Part shown: one piece after another, positions 153 to 31,707 of the stretch
How positions within the stretch are numbered: the first letter of the stretch is position 1
How the letters are laid out: the number at the start of each line of letters is the position of its first letter
Assembly (NCBI GenBank): GCA_902787955.1
Contig: CADAIJ010000010.1
Location: 1,942-65,941, forward strand
DNA from: an uncultured Erysipelotrichaceae bacterium
GTDB taxonomy: Bacteria; Bacillota_I; Bacilli_A; RFN20; CAG-826
Reading direction: 5' to 3'
DNA: 64,000 nt
Position numbers and translations under genes: made by a program
Notes under the pieces: generated by a model
The model's input: only the letters and a program-made list of their open reading frames with translations
Told to the model about the DNA's origin: nothing
Database searches by the model: none

Positions 153-182
153 TTTACTTATTTTAAAAATAAGCTCTATAAT
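153..182 (+). promoter_or_regulatory. sigma70-type promoter TTTACT-N18-TATAAT upstream of riboswitch/GGDEF transcript
   Basis: -35 TTTACT at 153-158, 18-nt spacer, -10 TATAAT at 177-182; predicted TSS a few nt before the aptamer. Confidence 0.4.
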
Positions 183-185
183 AGT

Positions 186-262
186 TAACGGCAAACCCGG
201 AGTAATCCGGCGACGCAAAGCTAGAGGGTCCTTATTAATTAAGGGCAGCCAGTTGCACTATA
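186..262 (+). promoter_or_regulatory. c-di-GMP-I (GEMM) riboswitch aptamer
   Basis: Read as RNA: ACGGCAAACC-CGGAGUAAUCCGG-CGACGCAAAGCUAGAGGGUCC...GGGCAGCCAGUUGCAC. All GEMM-I hallmarks in canonical order: GCAAAnCC, a GNRA (GUAA) hairpin, GACGCAAAGC, a GGG/CCC helix, and GCAGCCAGUUGC. Confidence 0.85.
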
Positions 263-12716: not shown

Positions 12717-12744
12717 TAAATAAAAATCCCAGTCACCTATAGTT

Positions 12745-12812
12745 GGCAACTGGCTGTCTTCTCTTATAAAGACCCTATAGCTTTGCGTCACCACATTACT
12801 GTGGTTTTGCTT
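12745..12812 (-). promoter_or_regulatory. c-di-GMP-I (GEMM) riboswitch aptamer
   Basis: Minus-strand RNA: GCAAAACC-ACAGUAAUGUGG-UGACGCAAAGCUAUAGGGUCUUUAUAAGAGAAGACAGCCAGUUGCC. Aligns element by element with the riboswitch at 186-262. Confidence 0.8.
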
Positions 12813-12819
12813 TTGTCTA

Positions 12820-12853
12820 TTTTTAGTTTTACTACTACAAAAAAAGAGTGTCA
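12820..12853 (-). promoter_or_regulatory. promoter TTGACA-N16-TAAAAC for the riboswitch-2 operon
   Basis: Perfect -35 TTGACA (rc of 12848-12853), weak -10. The transcript would begin a few nt upstream of the aptamer. Confidence 0.4.
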
Positions 12854-15796: not shown

Positions 15797-18700
15797 CTAT
15801 TTGTTTTGTCTAAGGGCTTCGATAAATGTTGATTTATCAAGTGGCTTATAGAAGTGATAACCTTGTAAGGCGATATCTTTAGAAATATCTCTAAGTAAGG
15901 CGTATTGATCACTATTTTCAACACCAACGAGGGCGACTTTAACACCGCGAGATAAGGCGACATCAGCGAGGTCTTTAATGGTTTGATATTTATTCTTATC
16001 TGTATCGATACCATTAACGAGATAACGGCCAATCTTAATCTCACTAAAGCCAAGTTCTTTTAAGACATCAACAGAGAGGAATGAACCACTGTATTGGTCA
16101 CAAATAAGAGCAATTCTTTGATGCAAGGATTTAGATAGTTTCTTAAATTCGTCTAAGTGGTCAAAGACTTCTTTTTCCGTAATTTCAAAACCCAGGAATT
16201 CTTTTGGGAAGTGATAGGTATTAATTAAGGAATAGATTGTTTCAAAGAAGTTTGGATCAGAGAAATAAGAGAAGTCGGTGTTAATAGTTAAACGATGGAA
16301 ACCATAAACCTTAAACGCGGTTAAACCAAATTGTTGATATAAATTACCAATATATTCAATTAAGGCGTTAGAAATAAGGGAGATCTTACCATTTTCCGCG
16401 GCAACCTTAACAAGTTCATCAGCGTTAAAGACAATCTTTCGATAATCATCAGCGATACGTAAGAGTAACTCAGCACCAAAGATGGCTTTGGTTCCTGCTT
16501 TAACCATTGGTTGAAGTAAGACAGAGAAGGTCTTATTACCAAATTGATCATCGATAACAGAGAGCATAAATCTCTTACGAGAGGCACTTCTAGAGTAATC
16601 ACTATCAGCGAAGTAGATGAAGTCTTTATTAGAAGCGTAGTTACCGCTATCTTTGAATTTCCAAGCAAACTTAATAAATTCTTCCGCTGTAGAGTAGCCC
16701 ATTGGATATGGGATTGGTAAATAAGTGATATTAAAGCTATTATGAGTTTCGTTATAGATATAATCTTCTTTAGAAGCTTCATAAATAGATTCAATAATAT
16801 TAACGACGTTAGCTTGACCAACTTCAGGAAGTAGGATAGCCACTGTATAGTTAGAGAAATGGAAGATATTATCTCTTCTAATGCCTTTCTCTTTAAGTCT
16901 TTGTAAGAAGCCTCTTTCTAAGAAGAGAGCGCCTTCGCTACCATATTTAGTTATTAATTCTTCTAAGTTATCAATATTAAGAAGTAATAAATATCCATGG
17001 GAGTTAACTTTATAGTAGTTACCCATTGAAATAACTAATGAAAGATAAGAGTTAATAAGTAAGTCACGGTCAAAACGATCTTCCACCGCTTCATTATTTT
17101 CAAGTAAACGAATGAACATTCTTCTTAAATAAGTGTTCTTAACGTTAACGGATAGAGATGTTTCGATACGTGAACCACTTTCGATTTCACTAACTTTCTT
17201 CTTTTCAGTTAGAATTGGACAATCTTTACATGGTGCATCTAAACCATATAAAACTTTGTAGCACTTCTCGCCCCACTTAATATTTGGGAATAAAGTAGGC
17301 ATATGTTGAGAGAAAGATGTTAGTTCATAAGATTCTGGGTTAACTCTATATAACGCGGTATTAGACGCTTGCAAGGTGGAGTTAATCTCTAAGAATGTTT
17401 CACTAAAGGTCATCTCTCTTTGGATATTTAAGATATATTCGCCTAAACGAGAAGTAACAACATATAAAGCTTCTCTAATATATGAATTGATACGGAGTTC
17501 ACGGCCATTTTCATTAAAGAAATAACACATACCCATGAGTTTTCCGCGGTCTAAAATCATATTATAGAAGCCACTTGTGATATTAATTTTGTCTAAGATT
17601 CTCGCTAAAGAAGGGTTAGTGTGCTTTCTTGTGGAGAAATAATATGAACCATCTTCTTCACGAACTTCACTAAAGACTTTTAGAATTTCATATTCAACGA
17701 TTTTGCCACGGTCAAAGTAGGTATTATTACCGTTTTCAACATGGATTATAGAATCATAACCTCTATGTCTATTTGAAATCGAAACAATACCAGCGCAGTC
17801 GATATTTAAGTGTTTAGCGAGTAATTTAAAGGTTGTTTCAATCTTCTCTAAGTTACTTTCATGATCCGCGACACTTAATGGCAAATCATGAAGACATTTT
17901 AAAATCTTAGTCATGACATTAAGTGACATTGAAGATTGAAGTATCTTTGAATTAGCGGTGTCAGAAAGACGATTTGGAATATAGAAGTTAATGACTTTAC
18001 CTTGACGTTTTGCGTATCGAAGGTCACTAAAGATTTCATTAACATCACTATATGGATAAGCGACTAAAGAGAATCTAGCGGGAATAGTAACTAAGCCATC
18101 ATATGTTTTCTTTGAGATGGATAAAGTTTTCATTAATGTGAAGAGTTGTTCATGAAGACAAGAAAGGGTATCAAAGTTTGGTAAATAAACATATATTCCC
18201 TTCTTTTCATCATCATTAATGATATAAAGGACATTTTCATATTCCTTAAATAAACTGATTGCATAAGAAATAACACGGTTAGTTTCTTCCTTAGTTAAGG
18301 TATCATGATCCATTTGATAATAGATTTCGATAACCGCGTTTCTAAAAGCCTGCGCAGAATTAATGATCGGAACTAAGTTTTCTTTAAATGATTCTAAGGA
18401 AACAATGTTTCTTTCTTTATCTAAGAAATCTAGTGGGATATTTTTATAACCATTAGAGAAATTAAGGAATTCAGTATCGTGAAGTTGAACTTTTAATTCA
18501 TCAATCGCTTTATTTAGTTCATCTACTTCATTAATTGATACAAAGTTAGAAGTGTATTTTTCAAGACTTTTAGAGGAATTAGTTAAGTTCTTATAGTTTT
18601 CTTTAGTGACGGAATAGATTCCACGATAGAAAACTTCAAGAGCGATTTTCACTCCAAAATAGACTGTTAAGCCGAACAAAACAAATAAAACCGAAATAAC

Positions 18701-18883
18701 ACTAATTAAGACAACTAATAGAATAGTGTTTGGTTCTTTTAAGTAGAAGAAAGTAAGTGGAACCCCTACTGCAAAGATAGTAATTAAAACGACAAAAGGA
18801 ATAGCTACCCCGAGGACCGCGGCAACTTTAAGAGATATTGGCTTCTTAAAAAGAAGGTTATTATGTTCTTGCTTATTAGACAT
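15797..18883 (-). CDS. membrane protein with degenerate GGDEF and degenerate EAL domains; candidate c-di-GMP receptor/scaffold
   Basis: Start at ATG 18883 (MSNKQ...) with AAGGAGGAG SD. 2-3 N-terminal TM helices. GGDEF-like region with the active site replaced (..HFSNYTVAILLPE). C-terminal EAL fold with LLQPMV, AELLLR, CDQYSGSF (in place of DDFGTGYSS), KIGRYL, VGVE. Confidence 0.6.
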   Translation of the reverse strand: MSNKQEHNNLLFKKPISLKVAAVLGVAIPFVVLITIFAVGVPLTFFYLKEPNTILLVVLISVISVLFVLFGLTVYFGVKIALEVFYRGIYSVTKENYKNLTNSSKSLEKYTSNFVSINEVDELNKAIDELKVQLHDTEFLNFSNGYKNIPLDFLDKERNIVSLESFKENLVPIINSAQAFRNAVIEIYYQMDHDTLTKEETNRVISYAISLFKEYENVLYIINDDEKKGIYVYLPNFDTLSCLHEQLFTLMKTLSISKKTYDGLVTIPARFSLVAYPYSDVNEIFSDLRYAKRQGKVINFYIPNRLSDTANSKILQSSMSLNVMTKILKCLHDLPLSVADHESNLEKIETTFKLLAKHLNIDCAGIVSISNRHRGYDSIIHVENGNNTYFDRGKIVEYEILKVFSEVREEDGSYYFSTRKHTNPSLARILDKINITSGFYNMILDRGKLMGMCYFFNENGRELRINSYIREALYVVTSRLGEYILNIQREMTFSETFLEINSTLQASNTALYRVNPESYELTSFSQHMPTLFPNIKWGEKCYKVLYGLDAPCKDCPILTEKKKVSEIESGSRIETSLSVNVKNTYLRRMFIRLLENNEAVEDRFDRDLLINSYLSLVISMGNYYKVNSHGYLLLLNIDNLEELITKYGSEGALFLERGFLQRLKEKGIRRDNIFHFSNYTVAILLPEVGQANVVNIIESIYEASKEDYIYNETHNSFNITYLPIPYPMGYSTAEEFIKFAWKFKDSGNYASNKDFIYFADSDYSRSASRKRFMLSVIDDQFGNKTFSVLLQPMVKAGTKAIFGAELLLRIADDYRKIVFNADELVKVAAENGKISLISNALIEYIGNLYQQFGLTAFKVYGFHRLTINTDFSYFSDPNFFETIYSLINTYHFPKEFLGFEITEKEVFDHLDEFKKLSKSLHQRIALICDQYSGSFLSVDVLKELGFSEIKIGRYLVNGIDTDKNKYQTIKDLADVALSRGVKVALVGVENSDQYALLRDISKDIALQGYHFYKPLDKSTFIEALRQNK

Positions 18884-19622
18884 TTTCTCCTCCTTTAATA
18901 ACGTCATTATGAGAAATCTCACCAATGCAGGTAACAATAGCTTTACCTACAGAGGAGAACTCTTGTAAGACTTTAATATAACTATCTGTGGTTGCTGGAG
19001 TGTTTAACACTCTTTCAACAACCTTAACTGTAACAAATGGAACTTTATTGATATAGGCTGAGATACAAACCCCAACAGAAGTACAGTCAAAAACTAAATT
19101 GTTTTTATGACCAAACATATATCCACCCGTTTCAATGTTAGCAATTTTATTAGATGTATCGATAATTGTGTTAGAAGATATAAAACTAGCGATTTTATAT
19201 TTAGAGAATGATCTTTTTTCAATAGAAGATGCGACTAATTTCATAATTTCTTCTTCTGATTTAAAGTTAGGTGGAAAGCCAGGAAGTTGACCTAAACGGA
19301 CATTAGCCTCTCTTATTTGGTCAACGTCTCCAGCGATAACTCGTTTTGATATGGCTATTTCACCAGGTTTAAAGTCATCGTTAAAAGCGACACATTTACC
19401 TACCACAAAGATTAAAAGAACGAAGTATTTCTCAATTAAATAGTTTGTAAGCATCGCAGAGATATAAGAAGTATAAACATCATAAACAAGTAAGACTTCT
19501 TGGTTAAAAATCTTACCAATTTGAACTTTATAGTTATTCATTACTACTTCTTCTCGACGGTCAGTCATGACACTTTCGAAATATAAAACGTCATCATGAA
19601 CGCTACCAAGAATCATAATCAT
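18876..19622 (-). CDS. PNP/UDP phosphorylase-superfamily protein (MTA/SAH nucleosidase-like)
   Basis: MIMILGSVHDDV...VGKCVAFNDDFKPGEIAI...ETGGYMFGH resembles MtnN (MKIGIIGAMEEEV...TGSAGGL..GDVVI...ATGDSF). Divergent; assignment tentative. Confidence 0.4.
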   Translation of the reverse strand: MIMILGSVHDDVLYFESVMTDRREEVVMNNYKVQIGKIFNQEVLLVYDVYTSYISAMLTNYLIEKYFVLLIFVVGKCVAFNDDFKPGEIAISKRVIAGDVDQIREANVRLGQLPGFPPNFKSEEEIMKLVASSIEKRSFSKYKIASFISSNTIIDTSNKIANIETGGYMFGHKNNLVFDCTSVGVCISAYINKVPFVTVKVVERVLNTPATTDSYIKVLQEFSSVGKAIVTCIGEISHNDVIKGGENV

Positions 19623-19624
19623 AA

Positions 19625-21166
19625 TTAACGTTTACCCTCCTTTCTTTCAAATGGATTAGAAATAAGGAATTTCTCGTATTCTGCTTTTGGAATTGGACGA
19701 GAATAATAGAAACCTTGAATTGTATCGCATTTCGCTTTCTTTAAGACTTCAACTTGATCTTTATTATCAACACCTTCAGCGATAACTTCGAGTTCGTTAG
19801 CTTGGCAAAGTTCGATTAAGAATTTAACAATCGCACTAGCTTTCTTATCGGATTCAATGTTATCAATAAAGGATTTATCAATTTTAACCGCATCAAATGG
19901 CATCTTTCTTAAGTTACCAATGTTGGAGAAACCGACACCGAAGTCATCCATTAAAACACGAATGCCATGGTCTCTAAGTTTACGAATAACAGAACTTGCC
20001 ATAAAGGTATTAGTTTGAGAAGTTGATTCGGTAATTTCAATTTCAATTAAGGATGGGTTGATATCGTGTTTTTCAATCGTGGAGATAACTGAATCAAGGA
20101 AGTTCATCGAGTAGAATTCATGTAAAGAGAAGTTAATTGATACAGGAAGCACTCTTCTACCTTTTCTTTTAGCTTCATTTAAATCTTCACAAACACGGTT
20201 AAACACATAAGTATCAATGCTATGGATTAAACCAGCGTTTTCAGCGATAAAAATGAATTTAGAAGGTTCTAATAAACCGTGTGTTGGAGAATTCCATCTA
20301 ACAAGAGCTTCACTAGAAACAAATCTTTTCGCGGTTAAAGAGAATTTAGGCTGATAATAAACAACAAATTCATTGTTGGTTAAGGCTTTAGTAATTTCAT
20401 CAATTTCGGATTTAGAGGAATGCTTACGGAAAGATTCATGATAGAAAGTTAAAGATTCGAAGTTTCTTTCACTAACATCACGAGCGATAGAAGCATTTTC
20501 AATATCCTCGATTAATGGAGATTCATAGTTAACTTCGGTAACACCAAAGAATGGTTGAACCCAGACATGTAAATCTTCATCCTCGGCGATTCTAAATAAA
20601 TCATTAGAAATAGCGTTAACTAGGTTTTTAATATGGTCATCTTCATCAGAAACAGTGTACACATAGAATAAACCCTTGTTATACGCGAAGGCACTATCAC
20701 GATGGAGTAAACCTTTATCTTTATCAAAATAAGAAGTTAAGAAGTCCGCTATTTTGGCAGAGAAACTAATAATAGATTCATCGTGAGAAGTGTTCTCCAT
20801 GACTGATTGGTTCGCCGCGGAGAAGATAGTAATATATTGTTTTTTCTTACGGTTTAAGAACGATTTTTTAAGAAGAGACACTCTAACTTCAAAAGACGCT
20901 AAGTTAAAGAATGTTGTCTTTTTACCTAAGGCGTATAAGTTTTCATTTTCAAGGTTAATCTTCTTTTGAGTTTCTTGAGTAAATCTCATGAAGAAGAACA
21001 TTGCTGCGGAAATAACAGCAGGAACAAGAATAATTAATAAAATAGCAATAGCAGGATGTTCCTTAAGCATGCCATTAAGTTCAAAAATGAATGAAAGAAC
21101 AAAGCCAGCAAGGAAAATGGTGCCTGTTGTTATAAATAATGCAAGATATCTTCTACGTAGGTTCAT
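19625..21166 (-). CDS. membrane-anchored c-di-GMP phosphodiesterase (2 TM + degenerate GGDEF-like + EAL)
   Basis: EAL domain with YYQP, EALVRW, DDFGVGFSN, KIDKSF, EGVD and QGFYYSRP motifs all intact. Start overlaps the stop of the upstream SipW gene. Confidence 0.75.
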   Translation of the reverse strand: MNLRRRYLALFITTGTIFLAGFVLSFIFELNGMLKEHPAIAILLIILVPAVISAAMFFFMRFTQETQKKINLENENLYALGKKTTFFNLASFEVRVSLLKKSFLNRKKKQYITIFSAANQSVMENTSHDESIISFSAKIADFLTSYFDKDKGLLHRDSAFAYNKGLFYVYTVSDEDDHIKNLVNAISNDLFRIAEDEDLHVWVQPFFGVTEVNYESPLIEDIENASIARDVSERNFESLTFYHESFRKHSSKSEIDEITKALTNNEFVVYYQPKFSLTAKRFVSSEALVRWNSPTHGLLEPSKFIFIAENAGLIHSIDTYVFNRVCEDLNEAKRKGRRVLPVSINFSLHEFYSMNFLDSVISTIEKHDINPSLIEIEITESTSQTNTFMASSVIRKLRDHGIRVLMDDFGVGFSNIGNLRKMPFDAVKIDKSFIDNIESDKKASAIVKFLIELCQANELEVIAEGVDNKDQVEVLKKAKCDTIQGFYYSRPIPKAEYEKFLISNPFERKEGKR

Positions 21167-22098
21167 TATTTGCCGCCTTTCTTTTTCATCATTTCATCTA
21201 ATAATTCTTGTTTGAGTTTCTTTTTCTCTTCTTCACTGAAGCCATCTAATGAACTTGAATCAGATCCTCCTGGCTTTTTATCGCCTTTTGGATTATCTCC
21301 TCCACTAGCGCCTTCTTCAGGTTCTTTAACCGCCTTAAATATATCTAAGACAGAAGTGACAATAAGATATGAAGCTGGAATTAAGAGTAAAACAATTAAA
21401 CCCCAAGGAGTTGTAATGAAATACAAAAGTCCACCTAAAACAGGACTATTTAATATTACCACACCAAAGAGTTCTTTTTCGGTGAAAGTTTGATATTGAC
21501 CGAATTGGGATTTATAGCCTTCTTTATTAGTGCCAGAGGTAAAGAAGATATATCTTCCTTCGCCAAGAGGCTTAGATTCATCAATTTGAATTTCTCTTAA
21601 ACGGTGGGTCATTGGATAATTAGTTGGTGAAGTTGGATCACTTGGACCAATTTCCTTATCCCATTTAGTAATTCCGCCAGTAGTAGGAACATATGGGTAT
21701 CTTTGGTTATCGAAGAAAGTCAAATCAATAGTTTCTTCTTTTAAATACATTTGATAGATAGTTTCACAATCGTGTTTATGAGTAACAATTGCGGTATTTA
21801 CACCATATTCAGGAAGCATGGAATCAGTTTCAATAAGGAATGTTGAATAACCAAAGGCAACATTGCGGCCATAGTTTTCACCGCGATGAATCATTCCATC
21901 AATAACAAAAACACCAGCAAACACAAATACTGCGGCAAAGAAACCAGTAATAACCCATTCGATTATACGACGGGCTTTCGATTTTGGTTTCTTCTCTTTT
22001 TTATCAGTAGAGTCTTGAGGTTTAGCTTCATTATTAGCTTCACTTTCAGTAGCAGGTTTTTCTTCTACTGGAGTTTCTGTTTTCTTTTCTTCATCCAT
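21166..22098 (-). CDS. sipW: SipW-type (archaeal/ER-type, family S26B) signal peptidase I with long charged N- and C-terminal extensions
   Basis: TM helix; Ser box ..LIETDSMLPE (cf. SipW VLSGSMEP); His box MTHRLREIQI...FFTSGTNKEG (cf. SipW VTHRIVDIT...FKTKGDNN); C-terminal TM LGGLLYFITTPWGLIVLLLIP. ~50-aa acidic/K-rich N-tail and ~60-aa G/S/D/K-rich C-tail, which the ~190-aa B. subtilis SipW lacks. Confidence 0.7.
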   Translation of the reverse strand: MDEEKKTETPVEEKPATESEANNEAKPQDSTDKKEKKPKSKARRIIEWVITGFFAAVFVFAGVFVIDGMIHRGENYGRNVAFGYSTFLIETDSMLPEYGVNTAIVTHKHDCETIYQMYLKEETIDLTFFDNQRYPYVPTTGGITKWDKEIGPSDPTSPTNYPMTHRLREIQIDESKPLGEGRYIFFTSGTNKEGYKSQFGQYQTFTEKELFGVVILNSPVLGGLLYFITTPWGLIVLLLIPASYLIVTSVLDIFKAVKEPEEGASGGDNPKGDKKPGGSDSSSLDGFSEEEKKKLKQELLDEMMKKKGGK

Positions 22099-22100
22099 AG

Positions 22101-23795
22101 TTATTCAGCTTCCCCTCCTTCCTCTTTCTTTTCTTCATCTAAAAGTTTTTCAGAACCATCCTCATCGTTTTGTTCTTCGGATTCATCTTCTACACTTTGT
22201 TCTTCGGAATCTTTATTTTCTTCTAAAGACTCTTCATCCTCTTCAGATTCTTCAGCAGGAATTTCTTCATCTTCTTCCGCAGGAGTTTCTTCATTTTCAT
22301 CAGCTGAAAGTTCTTCAATAGGTTCTTCAACTACTTCATTTTCTTCAGTTAAAGGCTCAGAAGTCGCTTCGATTGGACTATTTGTCTCATCCACAGGAGT
22401 TTCTGCAGGTTTTTCTTCAATAACTGGTTCTTCAGGAATATCAAATTCATCAGTCTTAGCAGTATCGATAAGTTTTTGTCTTTCTTCTTCGATACGTTGT
22501 TGTTCGGCAAGACGAATATCTTCAAGACGTTTACGTTCAGCCTCAGCTTCTTCTTTTTGTCTTTTAGCGATAATATTTTGTACTTTCTTTTCCCAAGCTT
22601 TTTGTTCTTTTTCTTTACGCTTGGCGAGCTTCTCTTTTTCAGATTGTTCTTCTTTATTCTTTTTCTTTTGTTCTATCTCTTCTTTGTAGTATTCTTTTTC
22701 GAGTTTAGTTGGACGGACTGGGAGATCTTCTTTAACTAAAGAATTAAGATATTGTTGATATGCTTCATCAACACGAACATATTCCACTGGTCCTTTTAAA
22801 AGCTCATCATAGATGAATGGCTCATCGTCAAGAGATTTAAGAAGTTTTGGTTTATATACTCTATTTTTAGCTTTGAGTTTGTTCTTTTTGTCTTTAGATT
22901 TAAGCGCTAAATAGTTGGCAAACATTACCATATTGAGCTCTTTAAGTTCTTTTTCATTATAATTAAAGACATCTTCATTAACTTTATAAGCAACTCCTAA
23001 GTTTTCATAACGTTGAATGAAGTTAAATAATTCATAACATTTATGATATTTTGGGTTCTTTCTTAAGATGTTAGTCATAACGATAGGAGCACGAACATCG
23101 TGATCGGTCTTCATCGTTCTCATGAAGTTAGAGTTATAGTAATAAAGCACATATTCTCTAATATTTTTAATTCTTTCGATATATGAGTTAGATGATTGAG
23201 CAACCGCGTTTTCAGCGTTAGAACGAACTTTGACTTTGGTTTCTACTTCAACTTCTTCACCACCGATAATGGCTTTAGATTTGTAATATAAAATTTCTTC
23301 ATCGTGTAAAGGAGCGAAACCTTTAACGAATTCATAACGTTTTTCAACGAAAATAACTAATCTTCTAACAAGTGTAGCGATAAATCTATTTTCGTAAGTA
23401 TGAATATCAGTTTCGTTAGCGATATTTAAAATTTTAGAAGGAATAACTTGTCCACGTTCATCAACAGTTTTGATGTATTGAGTGTGGCTTGCTAAATGTC
23501 GAACTGATTCAGCGTTTGTTTTTCTAGCTAATTCAACAGGAACTAAATTAGCAACTGAAGCGGTAACTTCACGAGGATTAGTAATAATATCACCTAAGTC
23601 AAATAAGCAGTCTTCAATCTTTTTAATCCAGCTTAAGTCGAAGGAAGAGGATTCAACTCTATCCATTCTCATATAGGAATTTTGGCCTTCAGAAAGATGT
23701 GTCAAAGCTTCACGAGCGGTTTCGTCAGTGAAGAGTGATTTTGTCTTGGTGATATATCTACCAAAGAGTTTTTTGTTACGATTACGAACTGCCAT
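22101..23795 (-). CDS. hypothetical protein: ~330-aa globular N-domain + ~230-aa E/K/D-rich coiled-coil and acidic tail; possible partner of the adjacent McrB-like GTPase
   Basis: Tightly coupled downstream of the McrB-family gene (12-nt gap). The C-terminal half is a low-complexity EEQ/KEE/EEDEE repeat. I could not see a PD-(D/E)xK nuclease motif. Confidence 0.4.
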   Translation of the reverse strand: MAVRNRNKKLFGRYITKTKSLFTDETAREALTHLSEGQNSYMRMDRVESSSFDLSWIKKIEDCLFDLGDIITNPREVTASVANLVPVELARKTNAESVRHLASHTQYIKTVDERGQVIPSKILNIANETDIHTYENRFIATLVRRLVIFVEKRYEFVKGFAPLHDEEILYYKSKAIIGGEEVEVETKVKVRSNAENAVAQSSNSYIERIKNIREYVLYYYNSNFMRTMKTDHDVRAPIVMTNILRKNPKYHKCYELFNFIQRYENLGVAYKVNEDVFNYNEKELKELNMVMFANYLALKSKDKKNKLKAKNRVYKPKLLKSLDDEPFIYDELLKGPVEYVRVDEAYQQYLNSLVKEDLPVRPTKLEKEYYKEEIEQKKKNKEEQSEKEKLAKRKEKEQKAWEKKVQNIIAKRQKEEAEAERKRLEDIRLAEQQRIEEERQKLIDTAKTDEFDIPEEPVIEEKPAETPVDETNSPIEATSEPLTEENEVVEEPIEELSADENEETPAEEDEEIPAEESEEDEESLEENKDSEEQSVEDESEEQNDEDGSEKLLDEEKKEEGGEAE

Positions 23796-23807
23796 TTAGA
23801 CCTCTAA

Positions 23808-25325
23808 TTAGATTGATTTAAGTAAGTTTTGAATATAGGCGTGAGCCATTGGGAAAGTATTCTTTCCGTATAATTTATCGAGTTGAACTTCGAGTTCTTT
23901 AAGTTCGTCTTTTAAGAAAGCGATATTTAAAGATTCGAATTTCTTTAAGATTTTGTTTGTAAAGATAAAGTCAAAGCCATCGGTTTCTTTACCACCTGTC
24001 GCAACAAAGACTGGGATAAAGGTATCGAGTTGTTTTAAGATACGGTTACCAAAGGCGAGTTTGAATTTTTTAATGACGAAGTTATCAAGAGTTTCAAATT
24101 TCTTAAGCATAGCTTCGGAAATTGGATAGTTAGAAACAGCTTCATCATACAATGATTTGATTTGAGCGTATGGAACAGAAATAGCTTCTTGGTTTTCTGC
24201 TTCAAATGGACGGCCTTTATCATCAAAGAATAAGGAAACCGCACGGTCATAGACCTTATCAGAAATTGTATAGGTACTATCATCGTTGTTCGCAGTGCCA
24301 AAGAAGATGATGTTTTGTGGAATTAATAACTTACCATCTTTGAGGTTCTTTGGATCCCCTGCCATTGGAGATGGAATTAAGTCGATTAACCAGTCAGCTG
24401 GATCTCTCATTTCCATGACGGATAAGAATTCAGCAAAGTAGTATTCAATACGTGCTAAGTTCATTTCATCGAGGACGATAACGTTTAAGTCTTTACGGTA
24501 AGTAGAAACATATAATGCTCTTAAGAATTCAGATTCATTGAACTTCTTAGTGAATTCGTTATAGTAACCGATAAGTTCAGATCTATCTTTCCAAGATGGT
24601 TGAACTGGAATGATAGAGGAGTCAAAACTAAAGAATTTACCTAAAGCATAGGCCATGGAAGTTTTACCTGTACCAGAGATACCTTCTAAGATAATTAGCT
24701 TAGAAGTGGCCATACCTGCAAATAATTGTCTAATTGTTTCAATTTTATAGTAAAGATGTAATTGGCTTGCCGCATAATTTCTAAAAGCGTTACATAATTC
24801 TTCAAGTGATAAGCCTTCTTTATATGGAACAGACATATCAACACCGTTATAGGAATTATCAACACGGACAAGTTTTGGGAAACGAGATGTAACTTCTTCG
24901 ACAACTTCTTGGTCTTGTTTAGACATTTCACCAGGTTTAACGCCCATATAAGCAGTCTTTAAGTTGAGGATTTTATCTTTTTCTTGAACAGCTTGATAGA
25001 GTTCAAATGATAATCTTTCAACTTGACGATAGAGTTCATCTTTTTCAAGTTCTCTTTTATAGAATTTGACGTATTTACGGATTAAAAGATATAAGCCAAA
25101 TCCAATACCTCCAATTAAACCGATAAATAAGAGGAGGAAAAGAATCCAGAAGAACCAGAACCAGAAATCTGGTGGATTGGAATAATGTTCAAGTAACGAA
25201 TTATAGTAATTGAAGTTAGCAGGAACATCCGCCCACGGGGAAGCGAAGGCTTTGTTAAAGAAAGTGCCTAGATCGCTAAAAAATCTGATTAATAATTCTC
25301 TTAAGTATTCAAAGTATGCACTCAT
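23808..25325 (-). CDS. membrane-anchored McrB-family AAA+ GTPase (AAA_5)
   Basis: Walker A GISGTGKTSMAYALGKF; Walker B VIVLDEMNLARIEYYFAEFLSVMEMRD (cf. McrB FIIDEINRANLSKVFGEVMMLMEH); NxxD motif FFGTANNDDST (cf. McrB GLMNTADRS). Unusual N-terminal TM segment FWFWFFWILFLLLFIGLIGGIGFGLYLLI. Confidence 0.65.
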   Translation of the reverse strand: MSAYFEYLRELLIRFFSDLGTFFNKAFASPWADVPANFNYYNSLLEHYSNPPDFWFWFFWILFLLLFIGLIGGIGFGLYLLIRKYVKFYKRELEKDELYRQVERLSFELYQAVQEKDKILNLKTAYMGVKPGEMSKQDQEVVEEVTSRFPKLVRVDNSYNGVDMSVPYKEGLSLEELCNAFRNYAASQLHLYYKIETIRQLFAGMATSKLIILEGISGTGKTSMAYALGKFFSFDSSIIPVQPSWKDRSELIGYYNEFTKKFNESEFLRALYVSTYRKDLNVIVLDEMNLARIEYYFAEFLSVMEMRDPADWLIDLIPSPMAGDPKNLKDGKLLIPQNIIFFGTANNDDSTYTISDKVYDRAVSLFFDDKGRPFEAENQEAISVPYAQIKSLYDEAVSNYPISEAMLKKFETLDNFVIKKFKLAFGNRILKQLDTFIPVFVATGGKETDGFDFIFTNKILKKFESLNIAFLKDELKELEVQLDKLYGKNTFPMAHAYIQNLLKSI

Positions 25326-25328
25326 AAA

Positions 25329-26480
25329 TTACATCTCCCTTAATATCTTAAATTCAATTTGAGCAAGGAACTTTGCTCCCATAGTTGTATTAATACAATA
25401 TAAATCCCAGCCTTCTAAGTATATAGAAAGCACGAATTTAGATGGTACATTTCGATAAACTGGAATAACGATTCCATCATCTAAATCGAATACATTTGTT
25501 TTGTCATAAGCCTTCTCAGTTTTGATAGATAAGCCACCTTCTTGAACAGCTTTATCATAATCAAATGGATGAGCATATTCATGTGAACTCGCGGTAAAAG
25601 CAGAAAATTTGCTATTTGGAGGTAAAATTGTACCAGTTCCGACTTCACCATAATATGAATCTGAGAAACGTTCATTTAAAACTTCACCATAAATAGTTTC
25701 ATAACGGCTGCTATTTTTAGTAAAGGTGTCATAGTAAGAATCTTTATCAATATCAAGTCTACCACCTAATAAAGTTGGTTTTGTTTTAGCAGTTTTGTTT
25801 GGATTATAAATATAGTAGTTATAATCATCACCGTTATTGACAAGGATTGAGATTCTCATCGCATTCGCTAAATTGTTTAAGCATTCATAGATATCATCTT
25901 CTTCGTAGCCACGGAATCCAACATCTTTAGATTCAAATAATTCGTGAGCAATTCTTCTATTCTCATCTATATCTGGAAGAATGGAGGTAGTTTCAGGATT
26001 GATGCTGACGTAAACGTCATCATCAGCGATTAAATAAAGATCTTGAGAATAGTAATTATTTAAGTAATCTCTTAAGTTATGATCTTCGTCATAAACTTTA
26101 TTAGATACTTCCTCTAAACGTGGTTCTTCTTCAAATGATAAAGCAGTTTGATATTCATAGAATTTTGGTTCTTCCGCTCTATCAGCGATTGGAGCAGTTT
26201 TATCAAACCATTTTGACTCATACATGGAAGAAACTGGAGAGAAGATTCTAGTGTGTTTTAATTCATTATCTTTAAGTTCGTTTTTAGTGTAACTTTCGAT
26301 GTCATCGATATCTTTGGTGGTTGAGATTCTTAAATCTCTAGTGGCTTTCATCTCAATATCAATCGTGTCTACATAGGCGCGCGATGAAGAAGCAAACCAA
26401 GCAACTGATACAGATAAAGAAATCGTCGCAAGTGAAATAACTGCTACTAAAGTAGAGATAAATGCGCGACGAATATTCAT
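25329..26480 (-). CDS. SipW-cognate secreted protein, TasA/camelysin-like paralog
   Basis: N-terminus MNIRRAFISTLVAVISLATISLSVSVAWFASSS; C-terminus ..SIYLEGWDLYC...AKFLAQIEFKI. Confidence 0.55.
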   Translation of the reverse strand: MNIRRAFISTLVAVISLATISLSVSVAWFASSSRAYVDTIDIEMKATRDLRISTTKDIDDIESYTKNELKDNELKHTRIFSPVSSMYESKWFDKTAPIADRAEEPKFYEYQTALSFEEEPRLEEVSNKVYDEDHNLRDYLNNYYSQDLYLIADDDVYVSINPETTSILPDIDENRRIAHELFESKDVGFRGYEEDDIYECLNNLANAMRISILVNNGDDYNYYIYNPNKTAKTKPTLLGGRLDIDKDSYYDTFTKNSSRYETIYGEVLNERFSDSYYGEVGTGTILPPNSKFSAFTASSHEYAHPFDYDKAVQEGGLSIKTEKAYDKTNVFDLDDGIVIPVYRNVPSKFVLSIYLEGWDLYCINTTMGAKFLAQIEFKILREM

Positions 26481-26482
26481 AA

Positions 26483-27586
26483 TTAATCAACTCTATTAAT
26501 TTGGAAAGTTAATCCAAGATTAAATTTGTGAGAAATCTCCTCATTAACAACATGGTGGTCCCAACCTTCAATGTAAATGGTTAATGTAGCTTCTCCTAAC
26601 GCACTTACAGTGTTCGCGGTTGTACAAATTTGTTTACCACCACTTAATACACCAGTACCATCATCAATAGGCTTGATGGAATTTAAAGTTTCATAATCTG
26701 CTTCAAGTGGACTTAAAGCATCCATGCTATCGTACCCATATACGCCTGGGAAATGTTTGCCAACAAAAGTTGATGGATCAGTATTACCAACTCCATTGAC
26801 ATCAACAAAATCACTCTCAGTTGCATAATATGTTCTAGCAGCACTTGGATTTGTGACATGGCCATAAACGATTTCGTTATCAGAATCATCATGATCGTAG
26901 AAACCATCATCATTAAGGTCTAAAAGACCCCCTACAGCATTGGAGGCAGCCCCTCCTTCTGCGGATGGATTGAAGATATACTTTGTATCTCCGTTCACAT
27001 GTACACGAATAGATTTATAAATCTCGCCATCGGTAAGGATATTCTTTGGATTTGCATCCGCGCCAGAAATCCAAACCTTTTGGTTTCTCGCATAGTAATT
27101 TGGAGATTCTGAAACTTCGTTAGTTCTAATGATTCTAAACACAAACGGAATCTGCACATATTGATTCTTTGTAGCAATATTATCGTTTTGTGCATGGCCT
27201 GCAATTAAGCATTCGGTCAATGATAAAGTATCACCATAGTGATATTCATTTGATGAAACTGGTCTTAATTCATTAGTGGCATAGCCAGAGAGTTCAAGAT
27301 ACCCGTTAATGGCGTCGGAATCGAGACCTTTACCAGGCTGAGCCCAAGCATACGAAACAGCATCTATAACTTCGGTAGTTAAACCGTAGCTAGATAGATT
27401 TTTGTCTGTTTTGATACCTATTTGTAATTGCTCACCAACAGTGACAGATGTTCCAGAATAGGACATTGTCGCTTTAGTGACGTAATTGAACCATGAAATG
27501 GATCCAGCGATAGAACCTAAGAAGGTGAACATAGTCGCTGCAATCAAAGTCGTGGTTAATAGGCCCGCTTTTCTTGAACTCTTCAT
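26483..27586 (-). CDS. SipW-cognate secreted protein, TasA/camelysin-like paralog
   Basis: N-terminus ..FLGSIAGSISWFNYVTKATMSYSGTSV; C-terminus ..TIYIEGWDHHV..HKFNLGLTFQI. Close paralog of 27699-28670. Confidence 0.55.
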   Translation of the reverse strand: MKSSRKAGLLTTTLIAATMFTFLGSIAGSISWFNYVTKATMSYSGTSVTVGEQLQIGIKTDKNLSSYGLTTEVIDAVSYAWAQPGKGLDSDAINGYLELSGYATNELRPVSSNEYHYGDTLSLTECLIAGHAQNDNIATKNQYVQIPFVFRIIRTNEVSESPNYYARNQKVWISGADANPKNILTDGEIYKSIRVHVNGDTKYIFNPSAEGGAASNAVGGLLDLNDDGFYDHDDSDNEIVYGHVTNPSAARTYYATESDFVDVNGVGNTDPSTFVGKHFPGVYGYDSMDALSPLEADYETLNSIKPIDDGTGVLSGGKQICTTANTVSALGEATLTIYIEGWDHHVVNEEISHKFNLGLTFQINRVD

Positions 27587-27698
27587 TAGCTATTTCCTTT
27601 TTAAAATACGTTTAAAGTAAATAATATTTAATAATTAAAGATTTTATATAAATATAATTAAGACGAATAAATGTAGTATTTACAATACTAAGTTATTG

Positions 27699-28670
27699 TT
27701 ATGCGTGGTCGACGTGAGGTTTAACAGCAAATCTCATACCAACTTGGAAGTCGTGGATATATTTAGAGACATCCCAAATAGATTTAGCTGGAGTACCTAA
27801 TTCTGCCCAACCTTCTAACCAAATGGTAACTGTGAACTTTAAAGCTTGGTTATTACCTTTAGTGTTAGTTTGACCTAAAGCAGTTTTACCATCAACACTG
27901 AAGTCTGCAACAGAATCATCAACATCAAAAGAACTTAACTTTCCAGCAACTTGGGTTAAAGTATCATCGCCATATTTTGTAGCAACTGTTTCGTCCCATT
28001 CATAACCTGTAGACTTATCATTAGCTGTATCGTTATTTAAATCTAAATAACCACCTAATGTAGTTGTGACATCATCAGTATGGGTAGTAATTAAGTTACC
28101 AGTTGTACCATTAGTAATATGGAATCTTAAACCTTTAGCAAAGTCGGCAGCTTGAACACCAGCGCCAGCATAACCTGCACCAGTCTTAGCGTTAGCAGCA
28201 ACTGTTAAGTCAGCAAGATAGACATCCTTTTCAAGGAATTTTTCTTCAGCCGCACCATTAATGTCTTTAACTCTAAGATAGACATCATATTGTAAATAAG
28301 CAGCATTATCAGCAGCCATCCAAGTAGAATAATTAAAATATTGATAAATTGGGTTGCCTTTGAATGATGCTGGAGCGGTTGCTAAATTCTTAGCACGTGC
28401 TGCACCTTCGGTGACAGGTTGTAATTTCATACCTGTATGTGTATCGGCGGCAGCGATAATTTGAGCGCTAGTTAAATCAGAATACCAGTTAGTGCCATCA
28501 AGGCTTATTTGAAGAGCTTCAGTACAGTGAACAGAAGTTCCCATATAAGACATTGTGGCTCTGGTAGAATATTGGTACCATGCGACAGATCCTGAAAGGG
28601 AACCGACTAAACCTGCTCCCGCGAGAAGACCTAACGCACCAACAATGAGTTTTTTATTATTAGTTTTCAT
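27699..28670 (-). CDS. SipW-cognate TasA-like protein, Ala/Gly/Thr-rich (candidate major structural subunit)
   Basis: N-terminus MKTNNKKLIVGALGLLAGAGLVGSLSGSVAWYQYSTRATMSYMGTSV; C-terminus TIWLEGWAELG...HDFQVGMRFAV. Higher GC and Ala-rich composition than its neighbours. Followed by a hairpin + U-rich attenuator in the 112-nt gap. Confidence 0.55.
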   Translation of the reverse strand: MKTNNKKLIVGALGLLAGAGLVGSLSGSVAWYQYSTRATMSYMGTSVHCTEALQISLDGTNWYSDLTSAQIIAAADTHTGMKLQPVTEGAARAKNLATAPASFKGNPIYQYFNYSTWMAADNAAYLQYDVYLRVKDINGAAEEKFLEKDVYLADLTVAANAKTGAGYAGAGVQAADFAKGLRFHITNGTTGNLITTHTDDVTTTLGGYLDLNNDTANDKSTGYEWDETVATKYGDDTLTQVAGKLSSFDVDDSVADFSVDGKTALGQTNTKGNNQALKFTVTIWLEGWAELGTPAKSIWDVSKYIHDFQVGMRFAVKPHVDHA

Positions 28671-29490
28671 AAGCGTTTATTTCAACTCCTAATTTCATGT
28701 TTGCACCTTCTGGTGCTTCGAGACTTGAATTTGATTGAGGGTCTTCACCTTCAACCCAAGTCACGATTGTGTAACGTTTCATATCACCTGCATTGAAATT
28801 AGAAACTGGAATAGTAGCGATCGTAGTGTCATTTTCGAACTCTTCTGCAAATCCAGGGAATGGGTTAGCAGCGTCCGCTTTTGATAAAGGAATAGAAATA
28901 TACTCTTTTTGAGTAGGGTTTCCATCCTCATCATAGTTAATGCCTTCACTTCGTTTTGCGTACACGGTGTAATCGTGATCAGTGGAAATGCCATCATTTT
29001 CATAGATCATAACTCTAACAAGGTTATCAATGTATCTTCCATCTTTAGATGGTTTGTTTTCAGTGATATTAACCTTAAAGTCATATCTACAAGTAGAGTT
29101 TCCTACGTTTTTAAGGAAGAATGTGTACTTAAAGAAATCCATAGAGACGACTTCTTTGTTCTTTGAATCATAGTTAGCACCATAAAGGTAATCATAACTA
29201 TCATTGTCGATACGAGATTCGTCTTCTCTGATTTTCTCAAAAGTGTATTCCTCGTATGTCTTAATCTCACCAACGTGTAAATAAGATGTAGGATTACTGA
29301 AAGATGATTTTTCACTTAAAGCGATCTGAACACCCCCAGTTCCTAAAGTAACTGTGAATGTACCTGTGTATTGACCAAGAAAAGCGACTATCGCTAATGA
29401 AGTTACTCCACCTGCGCCAACAAGTGCAATAATAGCGGCAGCCTTTTTTCTTCGGTGCTTTTTCGCATACTCAATTTCTAGTTCTTTCAT
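28660..29490 (-). CDS. SipW-cognate secreted protein, TasA/camelysin-like; first gene of the riboswitch-3 operon
   Basis: N-terminus KKHRRKKAAAIIALVGAGGVTSLAIVAFLGQYTG; C-terminus IVTWVEGEDPQS...ANMKLGVEINAYEN. No obvious SD before the ATG. Confidence 0.5.
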   Translation of the reverse strand: MKELEIEYAKKHRRKKAAAIIALVGAGGVTSLAIVAFLGQYTGTFTVTLGTGGVQIALSEKSSFSNPTSYLHVGEIKTYEEYTFEKIREDESRIDNDSYDYLYGANYDSKNKEVVSMDFFKYTFFLKNVGNSTCRYDFKVNITENKPSKDGRYIDNLVRVMIYENDGISTDHDYTVYAKRSEGINYDEDGNPTQKEYISIPLSKADAANPFPGFAEEFENDTTIATIPVSNFNAGDMKRYTIVTWVEGEDPQSNSSLEAPEGANMKLGVEINAYEN

Positions 29491-29543
29491 AGATGATAAT
29501 AGTGTTGCTCAAATAGCTTGAGCTAAATGTCCCAAAGGAAGGA

Positions 29544-29606
29544 AATAAAAACCAGTTGCCTATCATCCAATCAATTGGCGGAATATTTCATCCTTTAAGG
29601 CAACTG
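29544..29606 (-). terminator. riboswitch-controlled terminator (alternative to aptamer P1)
   Basis: Minus RNA: CCAGUUGCC (the aptamer's conserved 3' element) pairs perfectly with downstream GGCAACUGG (9 bp), followed by UUUUUAUUU. Confidence 0.65.
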
Positions 29607-29668
29607 GCTATCTTTTTCAAGACCCTATAGCTTTGCGACCCCATATCTCTATGAGTGTGCTTTTATCT
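29598..29668 (-). promoter_or_regulatory. c-di-GMP-I (GEMM) riboswitch aptamer
   Basis: Minus RNA: AAAAGCACACU-CAUAGAGAUAUG-GGGUCGCAAAGCUAUAGGGUCUUGAAAAAGAUAGCCAGUUGCCUU. GNRA (GAGA) hairpin, UCGCAAAGC, GGGUC...GAU, GCCAGUUGCC. The first element is a variant (GCACAC instead of GCAAACC). Confidence 0.75.
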
Positions 29669-29675
29669 CGCTTAC

Positions 29676-29703
29676 ATTATACACACCCCAAAACAAGATG
29701 CAA
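29676..29703 (-). promoter_or_regulatory. promoter TTGCAT-N16-tgTATAAT (extended -10)
   Basis: -35 TTGCAT = rc of 29698-29703; TGTGTATAAT = rc of 29676-29685. The TSS falls just 5' of the aptamer. Confidence 0.45.
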
Positions 29704-31444: not shown

Positions 31445-31580
31445 AATATTTACTCCTTAAACGACAAAATCATTCAAATAATTCGTCTTTTTACTTGAAT
31501 GGATGATAGGATTAAGATCGCATCGCTTTGTCGCTAATGAGCTTGGGACTTTGCCAACTAGTTTCCGGCTTTGCACCATT

Positions 31581-31610
31581 ATTATATTAAGTTTCTTTTT
31601 TTCTTGTCAA
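31581..31610 (-). promoter_or_regulatory. consensus sigma70 promoter TTGACA-N18-TATAAT with ~130-nt structured 5'UTR
   Basis: rc of 31605-31610 = TTGACA; rc of 31581-31586 = TATAAT. The 5'UTR contains three GCAAAG repeats and a long-range complementarity CGACAAAG / UUUUGUCG. Confidence 0.5.
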
Positions 31611-31707
31611 ACAAAAATGTGAAAGTTTATTTATTTTTATGATTATTTAGTAAGTAATACTTTCTAAAAAATATTGATGTGGTAACATTTATAGTCACTG
31701 GGACATT

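Follow-up and report, generated by a model that had tools for sequence, protein, structure and literature searches.

What does the conserved RNA leader in the middle of a 64-kb stretch of DNA from an uncultured Erysipelotrichaceae bacterium (contig CADAIJ010000010.1; the whole stretch is called the window) sense, in which direction does it switch, and which genes does it govern? An earlier note, made from the sequence letters, had described it as the third cyclic dimeric guanosine monophosphate (c-di-GMP) riboswitch of the window. The locus is a genuine c-di-GMP-I-type riboswitch, an ordinary member of a known sensor class. We regard it as highly probable that it is a transcriptional ON riboswitch of the GEMM-I class, with an A at the position of G20, which leads an operon of secreted proteins; most likely it switches on an operon for secreted, fibre-like proteins. 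The coordinates of all features are collected in Table 1.

Identification of the aptamer and its promoter

The minus strand at 29671..29596 matches RF01051 (c-di-GMP-I) over the full model (positions 1-87) with 54.9 bits and an E value of 5.6e-08 (cmscan, Rfam 15), the gathering score being 35 bits. The earlier note had named this covariance-model search as the check on its riboswitch claim, to which the lack of a match would have been fatal; the match is far above the threshold and the claim holds. The window contains three RF01051 matches above gathering: the present one, one at 12821..12742 (minus strand, 66 bits; riboswitch #2) and one at 180..260 (plus strand, 59.1 bits; riboswitch #1). 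The other two explain the number three given to the locus. All the elements that had been listed are present; their strand, which had not been given, is the minus strand. The model RF03167 (c-di-GMP-I-GGC) scores 52.1 bits against a gathering score of 59 and wins within the clan only at a permissive threshold; because the score is below gathering, the aptamer is not filed under this family.

For the comparative analysis we started from the product of the first regulated gene, which has 359 matches in the homologue search, none of them named; an exact-protein look-up with the window's own gene product gave no match. A profile from 28 homologues retrieved 43 loci in species-representative genomes (denoted by L and a number). 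Nearly all are rumen or gut metagenome-assembled genomes, labelled Bacilli, Erysipelotrichaceae, Mollicutes, 'Candidatus Enterosoma' or Clostridium sp. CAG:288. In 42 of the 43 loci the gene is preceded, 90-210 nt upstream and on the same strand, by an RF01051 aptamer (41-70 bits); the exception is cut off before the gene start. The samples comprise 24 orthologues for the alignment of motifs and of the first hairpin, 35 leaders for the ON-state folds and 43 leaders for the terminator stem.

The aptamer has the two-hairpin architecture of GEMM-I, with the GNRA cap, the conserved junction and covariation: both-side changes occur at six of the eight pairs of the first hairpin across the 24 orthologues, so this pairing is backed by covariation. 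The distal part of the second hairpin is short, is without the canonical tetraloop receptor and has low posterior probability in the cmscan alignment.

Concerning the promoter, TTGCAT and TATAAT are separated by a 16-nt spacer (the consensus scan reads TTTGCA-17-TATAAT, 10/12). The -10 box ends 5 nt 5' of the first base of the Rfam match, and the -35/-10 pair stands at the same distance from the aptamer in most orthologous loci. Read from the promoter, the start of transcription would lie at about 29671-29669. The earlier placement of the start at the 5' end of the aptamer is supported because the promoter keeps its distance to the aptamer across loci. The promoter had been read as TTGCAT-N16-tgTATAAT; its boxes and spacer are borne out, but the 'tg' abuts the -10 box (TGTG-TATAAT) and is not a canonical TGn extended -10 element.

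Table 1. Features of the riboswitch leader, its putative operon and the neighbouring complementary leader (positions in the window)
Feature	Position	Strand	Description and basis
-35 box TTGCAT	29698..29703	-	sequence reading, promoter scan; TTGnnn at equal distance in orthologous loci
-10 box TATAAT, TGTG directly before	29676..29681	-	sequence reading, promoter scan, orthologous loci
c-di-GMP-I (GEMM-I) aptamer	29596..29671	-	GAGA (GNRA) tetraloop on first hairpin; ACGCAAAGC-type junction, here GUCGCAAAGC; short second hairpin
A at Rfam model position 11 ('A20')	29661	-	cmscan alignment; mapping to Vc2 G20 is ours
Switching strand T5' GCCAGUUGCCU	29598..29608	-	aptamer 3' strand and terminator 5' arm at once
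P-alt 5' strand UAAAGGAUGAAAUAU	29583..29597	-	part forms the local hairpin H1 (29593-29580) in the OFF state
H2 hairpin (OFF state)	29567..29579	-	5' arm GCCAAUUG (29579-29572) is the decoy, predicted to pair with T3' in the ON state as the anti-terminator hairpin
M1 GGAUGAUAGG	29559..29568	-	predicted apical loop of the anti-terminator hairpin (ON); partly paired in H2 and T (OFF)
Terminator 3' arm T3' AGGCAACUGGU	29551..29561	-	pairs with T5'
U-run UUUUUAUUU	29543..29551	-	putative termination site; U-rich in orthologues too, mostly 6-8 U in the first 9 nt
P-alt 3' strand UUAUUUCCUUCCUUU	29534..29548	-	overlaps the end of the U-run
M2 UUGGGACA	29528..29535	-	single-stranded, directly 3' of P-alt
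H3 hairpin GCUCAAGCUAUUUGAGC	29507..29523	-	variable in sequence; hairpin at this place in most orthologues
First regulated gene, 276 aa	28660..29490	-	N-terminal membrane helix and predicted beta-sandwich domain; ATG at 29490
Rest of the putative operon	19625..28670	-	secreted proteins of 323, 367 and 383 aa, AAA_5-like ATPase, 564-aa and 310-aa proteins, EAL protein
Upstream gene, 395 aa	30257-31444	-	own promoter, Shine-Dalgarno site, strong terminator after the gene
Promoter and structured leader of the upstream gene	31445..31610	-	TTGACA 31610-31605, TATAAT 31586-31581 (18-nt spacer)

The terminator and the probable ON logic

The 3' strand of the aptamer (T5') and a downstream strand (T3') contain an exact complementary core, CCAGUUGCC at 29607-29599 and GGCAACUGG at 29560-29552, within a helix of 11-12 bp (AGCCAGUUGCCU / AGGCAACUGGUU). 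The two strands are 36-38 nt apart, 47 nt from start to start. Thus the platform has a GC-rich stem with a U-run behind it and a 5' arm which overlaps the aptamer 3' strand (29608-29598). The perfect pairing that the earlier note had seen is correct, as is the U-run after the downstream strand (UUUUUAUUU at 29551-29543); its distance of 45 nt is wrong (the gap is 38 nt), and the terminator hairpin it proposed exists but is longer than the 9 bp given.

Alone, the T hairpin folds with -22.9 kcal/mol against -12.65 +/- 2.39 kcal/mol for dinucleotide shuffles (z -4.3; 0/200 as good), and the minimum-energy fold of the whole leader includes it too. In the OFF state the stem closes a three-way junction containing H1 and H2. 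Its branched loop of 38 nt falls outside the range of about 3-8 nt of a compact intrinsic terminator, and because it exceeds the 8-nt limit of our simple terminator scan of the window, the hairpin is not listed there.

A T stem with a U-rich tail is present in 35 of the 43 leaders (-13 to -25 kcal/mol, RNAduplex). Compensatory changes are found in L011 (U-A to C-G), L025 (U-A to G-C) and L037/L041 (G-C to A-U), the compensated strand pairs being GCCAGCUGCC/GGCAGCUGGC, GCCAGGUGCC/GGCACCUGG and GCCAGUUACC/GGUAGCUGG, and there are several G.U variants. In the MAFFT alignment 90.5% of the cells of the 11 T-stem pairs are standard pairs, compared with 21-46% when the partner is slid by 1-3 columns. 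The covariation is limited because both strands are nearly invariant, which is expected for T5', as it must also fit the aptamer.

Two alternative hairpins use T3' as their 3' arm and were therefore compared at the decision point. The RNA ending at T3' was folded with T5' either free or withheld, the latter as a mimic of the ligand-bound aptamer. With T5' free the mean fold is -22.9 kcal/mol, and in about half of the leaders the stem adjoining the U-run continues for 10-13 bp without interruption (mean 8.8). When T5' is withheld, the mean is -8.5 kcal/mol and T3' usually has 4-6 weak contiguous pairs; it is wholly unpaired in L014, L018, L019, L023 and L024. The terminated transcript of the window folds with -36.1 kcal/mol with the T stem and -21.8 kcal/mol with T3' blocked.

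Riboswitch #2 offers a simpler case within the window. Its CCAGUUGCC (12753-12745) pairs with GGUGACUGG (12737-12729) across a plain 7-nt loop followed by a U-run; the platform is a 9-bp stem with two G.U pairs, and the U-run ends 2 nt before the start codon (ATG 12716). As read from its sequence, it is a minimal, unambiguous ON design. Also, the pilM switch of Geobacter metallireducens, a GEMM-Ib riboswitch for 3',3'-cyclic GMP-AMP (cGAMP), is an experimentally studied ON switch whose aptamer and terminator are mutually exclusive (PMC9262584). We accept the ON reading because of the energy asymmetry, the design of riboswitch #2 and the mutually exclusive logic of pilM. The earlier proposal that the ligand sequesters the aptamer 3' strand and so permits read-through is supported by the energy asymmetry and by the conservation of the T stem. 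Termination itself, its ligand-dependent direction and the order of folding are model predictions.

The proposed mechanism is as follows. Transcription would begin at the position given above. Without ligand, GCCAGUUGCCU would pair with AGGCAACUGGU, the stem would abut UUUUUAUUU and transcription would end. When the ligand is bound, the aptamer would retain its 3' strand, the weak local decoy GCCAAUUG would capture the terminator 3' arm, and the polymerase would get past the U-run. After read-through a helix of 10-15 bp, P-alt, would zip and lock the leader in the ON fold.

Conserved structure beyond the terminator

Conservation in the 38-nt 'loop' and past the U-run goes far beyond the needs of a terminator. 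M1, GGAUGAUAGG(C), is invariant or nearly so and GGGACA of M2 (UUGGGACA) is invariant in the 24 orthologues, whose proteins are about 40-50% identical; GGGACA is loosened to AGGACU or AAGACU in the most distant group. Exact copies of M1 are found only twice in the window.

The segment after the aptamer (UAAAGGAUGAAAUAU) is complementary to a segment running from inside the U-run to just before GGGACA (UUAUUUCCUUCCUUU), and these form P-alt. Its strands covary: GGGAGAAAUA / UAUUUCUCCC in L004, GGGACUGA / UCAGUUCC in L002 and GGCUUGAAUC / GAUUCAAAGCC in L011. Duplexes of strands from the same species average -10.4 kcal/mol and those across species -4.6 kcal/mol, and none of 10,000 permutations reaches the observed mean. 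Several species have P-alt only, without the local H1 hairpin. MAFFT and RNAalifold, run on whole leaders, misaligned the variable segments and so overlooked P-alt, which came to light when the leaders were parsed by anchor motifs.

With T5' withheld, the minimum-energy platform fold is P-alt enclosing the decoy:T3' hairpin in all 35 leaders. The 5' arm of H2 serves as the decoy strand (GCCAAU..., with UUGUU in another subgroup), and M1 lies in the apical loop of the ON-state hairpin in 26 of the 35 by a strict criterion. P-alt and the T stem are treated as alternatives because the loops of a joint pseudoknot would be too short to span the helices. According to these folds, the OFF state would consist of the T stem, H1 and H2, and the ON state of the aptamer, decoy:T3' and P-alt. 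P-alt would form only after read-through, because its 3' strand includes the end of the U-run, and would act as a lock on the ON fold. The aptamer would not be the sole anti-terminator; the decoy hairpin and the long-range helix would also take part. A platform more constrained than a terminator needs makes the leader a natural model for strand displacement and for locking after the decision.

Other functions were considered for the conserved motifs. A small upstream open reading frame (ORF) from the AUG in GGAUGAUAGG was rejected, as the distance from AUG to GGGACA is 31-37 nt, the frame is not kept and GGGACA is in another frame in L010. A sigma-54-type promoter at TGGGAC has, on reading, the wrong spacing to the GC element and unconserved downstream sequence. 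GGGACA is unlikely to be a displaced Shine-Dalgarno sequence, being 45-60 nt from the AUG with a hairpin between and pairing poorly with the anti-Shine-Dalgarno sequence. An Rfam search of the platform and of the upstream gene's leader for another known RNA family (ribozyme, tandem aptamer, thiamine pyrophosphate-like) gave only chance-level matches at E <= 10, and this idea was rejected. CsrA-type GGA sites or a K-turn at GGAUGAUAGG were also considered; neither would explain the complementary copy described below.

Related motifs and duplications are seen elsewhere. UGGGACA is found at 31699-31705 (plus strand) right before the ATG (31708) of a Wzy_C (O-antigen-ligase-like) gene without a canonical Shine-Dalgarno sequence, and UGGGA 10 nt before the ATG of riboswitch #2; together these are either a weak Shine-Dalgarno variant or a coincidence. 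The GGGAC/GGAC motif is repeated two to three times in the distant leaders L008, L026 and L031 (e.g. UGGACUUACG...UUGGACUUACGGGAC in L031), which, as a sequence pattern, looks like a multi-site binding element. A second aptamer-like sequence lies directly upstream of the annotated one at L033:3700-3757 and may be a tandem aptamer. At L013:3745-3900 the aptamer 3' end is duplicated and followed by an extra hairpin with a U-run ahead of the normal platform.

A complementary leader upstream

The leader of the upstream gene carries GUCCCAA (31550-31544) and CCUAUCAUCC (31510-31501), the exact reverse complements of M2 (UUGGGAC, a 7-mer) and M1 (a 10-mer), respectively. A complement of M1/M2 is found by a 9-mer test in about 20 other species, 1-3.6 kb upstream and in the same orientation throughout; with both motifs scored, inverted copies are present in at least eight species. 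This leader is itself a conserved structured RNA. A CGAC/GUCG helix encloses the GAUG/CAUC and CAUUCAA/UUGAAUG hairpins, another hairpin displays GUCCCAA (in the loop in most species), and the hairpins are followed by AUUUUUGUCGUUU and the Shine-Dalgarno site; the leader also has a U-rich tract. The sense strand is taken as the folding strand because of the many G.U pairs. No Rfam family matches it beyond chance-level hits at E <= 10. The leader is also present in L001, L002, L004, L006, L007, L009, L010, L013, L015, L017-L019, L021-L025, L027, L028 and L043, and may itself be a new cis-regulatory RNA.

Substitutions consistent with pairing between the two leaders are found in L002 (AUGGGAC with GUCCCAU) and L037 (CGAUGAUAGG with its exact complement), and an A-to-G change in the upstream leader of L021 retains a G.U pair. 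Not all changes are compensated: L017 and L025 have an A.C mismatch, and the flanks are mismatched in L010 and L027. The whole-leader duplex (W3) has -58.3 kcal/mol against -37.4 +/- 4.6 kcal/mol for shuffles (0/200), with a mean z of -2.3 over 21 species; because RNAduplex produces unrealistically long duplexes here, only the comparison with shuffles is meaningful. The layouts of the two leaders are mirror images, and, as would be asked of an SreA-like trans-acting leader, the complementarity is conserved and lies at positions that are accessible in the predicted folds. L044, the closest relative with a long contig, retains M1 and M2 and has a riboswitch-controlled gene upstream instead of the complementary leader; M1 and M2 therefore do not depend on an adjacent partner.

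We tentatively propose, as a possibility that falls short of an expectation, that the two leaders pair and that the read-through (ON) form of the riboswitch RNA is also a trans-acting RNA. GGAUGAUAGG would be exposed in an apical loop by P-alt and the anti-terminator hairpin of the ON fold, with UUGGGAC single-stranded alongside, and the exposed motifs would pair with CCUAUCAUCC and the loop GUCCCAA of the separately transcribed upstream fibre-subunit gene. If this is true, it would link the upstream gene, which itself has no aptamer, to c-di-GMP, and the leader would be the first trans-acting c-di-GMP riboswitch, acting in the ON state rather than in the terminated state. It poses the testable question of whether a second-messenger riboswitch relays its decision to a second transcript by RNA-RNA pairing. 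We discarded the idea that the motif copy on the opposite strand is the sense leader of a divergently transcribed gene, as the neighbour is on the same strand in most loci.

The motifs and their reverse complements might instead act on DNA, as binding sites of a double-strand DNA regulator common to the two promoter-proximal regions or as bipartite inverted repeats of an invertible (phase-variable) segment of about 2 kb, which would give junctions such as ...ACTTGAAT|GGATGATAGG|CAACTGG.... This would concern the extra conserved features only and leave the riboswitch itself unaffected. Leaders combining a riboswitch with an inverton exist in C. difficile (flgB and cmrRST), and the copies, which are inverted and 1.6-3.6 kb apart in the number of species given above, speak for this explanation. 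We consider it rather unlikely: the relative orientation is identical in all of the about 21 species assemblies, the spacing of the blocks varies between 31 and 46 nt, which suits a rigid DNA site poorly, and no recombinase gene adjoins the locus among the ORFs scanned. The placement of M1 in the ON-state apical loop and of GUCCCAA in a hairpin loop of most upstream leaders also points to RNA, as does the G.U pair kept in L021.

The ligand

Concerning the residues that contact the ligand (numbering of Vc2), the equivalents of A47 and C92 are present (GCAAAG; UGCC), and that of G20 is A. Position 20 is A in riboswitch #2 too and G in riboswitch #1. In the 42 orthologous leaders, as read from the AAAAGCA / AAAGGCA flank, it is mostly A, with G in L022-L024, L038, L039 and L041. 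With G20A, Vc2 binds c-di-GMP as well as 3',3'-cGAMP, and aptamers with a natural A20 are either selective for cGAMP or bispecific (PMC6140456); in Geobacter, A20G makes an aptamer c-di-GMP-selective (PMC6456294).

By these residues, the same architecture could have 3',3'-cGAMP as its physiological ligand, as a GEMM-Ib-type or truly bispecific sensor. We hold this to be unlikely. The six G20 leaders control the same gene and should reject cGAMP, and because the orthologous leaders mix A20 and G20, the shared ligand is most probably c-di-GMP. With A20, c-di-GMP can still be bound, the adenine being protonated (PMC6140456). The context also favours c-di-GMP: the window encodes one GGDEF protein and two EAL proteins, one of the latter being the phosphodiesterase of the operon's last gene, and the GGDEF protein appears, by our reading, to retain the base-recognition Asp (RNKTAYD). 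No cGAMP synthase (DncV/CD-NTase-like) gene was found among the 19 predicted proteins scanned with Pfam, the rest of the 64 kb being unscanned. From the sequences, the ligand is most likely c-di-GMP, possibly with 3',3'-cGAMP as well.

Weighing the direction of the switch

Several points speak against an ON switch for c-di-GMP. A 38-nt branched loop is unusual for an intrinsic terminator and the U-run is interrupted; a recognisable T3' strand is absent in a few orthologues (L017, L020); and the A at position 20 makes the ligand ambiguous. Both alternative hairpins adjoin the U-run through the shared T3' arm, so the direction of the switch rests on their relative stability. The stability gap between the two stems is smaller in the most distant group (L036-L041), and the ViennaRNA energies leave out tertiary structure and the energy of ligand binding.

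An OFF switch, with the decoy:T3' hairpin as the real terminator and the long-range T5':T3' helix as the anti-terminator, is nevertheless very improbable: a local hairpin would form faster than one closing a 38-nt loop, and the two hairpins have identical bottom pairs (GCCA:UGGC) in many loci, but the decoy hairpin is weak in the decision-point folds and leaves T3' unpaired in the five leaders named above, riboswitch #2 has homologous strands and no decoy, a T5':T3' anti-terminator would require a GC-rich stem of 10-13 bp right before the U-run not to terminate, and c-di-GMP usually activates adhesion and fibre genes.

Comparison with known systems

Taken alone, the sensor and the ON logic are ordinary and already known. 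New here are the decoy anti-terminator, the post-read-through helix, the invariant motifs with their complements in another leader, and the A at position 20. The ON reading is closest to pilM, which also has the GEMM-I fold with an A at the G20 equivalent, a terminator that takes the aptamer 3' strand including the ligand-pairing C, read-through with ligand (predicted here) and control of a cell-surface filament operon. In contrast to pilM, the terminator here closes a three-way junction with a decoy, P-alt spans the U-run and the aptamer is followed by two invariant motifs; both A20 and G20 occur among the orthologues, the GGDEF/EAL context makes c-di-GMP likelier, and the host belongs to the low-GC Bacilli (RF39-like) rather than to the Deltaproteobacteria.

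The canonical c-di-GMP-I riboswitches Vc2 (Vibrio cholerae) and Cd1 (C. difficile, OFF) share with this locus RF01051, the two-hairpin aptamer, the ACGCAAAGC-type junction and the position in a 5' leader, and canonical members likewise control adhesion or motility genes via transcription termination. Bc2 of Bacillus thuringiensis is an ON switch before a collagen-adhesin gene. The present locus differs from the canonical ones in having A for G20, a second hairpin that is short and has no canonical tetraloop receptor, a composite platform and a regulated gene family without a Pfam model.

The closest precedent for M1 and M2 is found in S-adenosylmethionine (SAM) riboswitches, in which a riboswitch leader is complementary to the leader of another mRNA: SreA and SreB of Listeria act in trans (Loh 2009, cited in PMC7395162), and SAM riboswitch small RNAs are described in Desulfovibrio (10.1101/803072) and Sinorhizobium (PMC9373788). 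In those systems it is the terminated (ligand-bound, OFF) transcript that acts, whereas here the motif pair would be complete and exposed only in the read-through (ON) form, and the interaction is a predicted one. The literature that we found reports no trans-acting role for any c-di-GMP riboswitch.

The putative regulated operon

At least eight genes, from the 276-aa protein to the EAL protein, would form one operon, as they lie on the same strand with short gaps. They include an AAA_5-like ATPase (505 aa), an acidic protein of 564 aa, a 310-aa protein weakly similar to SipW (E 6.6e-05) and, as the last gene, an EAL phosphodiesterase of 513 aa (E 2.2e-69). Pairwise comparison shows motifs common to the 276-, 323-, 367- and 383-aa proteins and to the 395-aa protein of the upstream gene. 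The N-terminal 'VAW(F/Y)'-type motif is found in the 323-, 367-, 383- and 395-aa proteins, and a C-terminal 'EG' motif with a W before it is common to the motif-sharing proteins. In the 323-, 367- and 383-aa proteins the two motifs are given as 'S(V/I)(A/S)W(F/Y)' and 'EGW'. None of the five has a Pfam or NCBIfam family at E <= 0.01. Concerning the TasA/camelysin sequence family, neither Pfam Peptidase_M73 nor NCBIfam TasA is assigned, and the profile has no match to a PDB sequence.

The regulated proteins appear moderately TasA-like in their predicted fold, and the operon probably encodes secreted, TasA-like fibre proteins with accessory proteins. As in TasA/SipW of Bacillus subtilis and the archaeal TasA-like filaments (PDB 8aur, 7pnb, 7ueg), the subunits would be secreted beta-sandwich proteins; as in the TasA/SipW system, several related subunit genes would share one operon with a protein that is here weakly SipW-like. 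They differ in having no family match at the sequence level and in an operon that adds the AAA_5-like ATPase and the EAL protein. To our knowledge, tapA-sipW-tasA of B. subtilis is not controlled by a riboswitch. The locus would tie c-di-GMP signalling to a widespread nameless family of apparently TasA-like secreted proteins of uncultured Bacilli from rumen and gut, and offers a first clue to the function of this family.

The first gene has no Shine-Dalgarno site, unlike most genes of the window. The bases before its AUG (UAUCAUC, 29498-29492; UAUCAUCU-AUG in the window and UCAUCU-AUG in close relatives) are complementary to part of M1 (GGAUGA), and these sequences might allow M1 to pair in cis with the region around the translation start, though in this subgroup only. 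Complementarity to M1 before the AUG is seen at the same place in L001, L002, L010, L028 and L044.

After the operon and on the same strand lie a gene for a PNP_UDP_1 phosphorylase-family protein (18876-19622) and one for a 1036-aa protein with a C-terminal EAL domain (15797-18907). The 64-kb window thus contains at least three c-di-GMP turnover proteins and three riboswitches.

The other riboswitches of the window

The operon of riboswitch #2 begins with a 292-aa protein which has the same N-terminal motif, as 'FAWF', and ends with a 1597-aa BspA-type leucine-rich-repeat protein. Riboswitch #1 (180-260, plus strand) precedes a GGDEF diguanylate-cyclase gene (339-1814, plus strand), with a terminator at 294-316 and a U-run at 318-325. 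In the minimum-energy fold this terminator is separate from the aptamer, and the aptamer's ACGCAAAGC is complementary to GCUUUGCGU of the terminator. The fold suggests that riboswitch #1 is an OFF switch, by which c-di-GMP would exert negative feedback on its own synthase.

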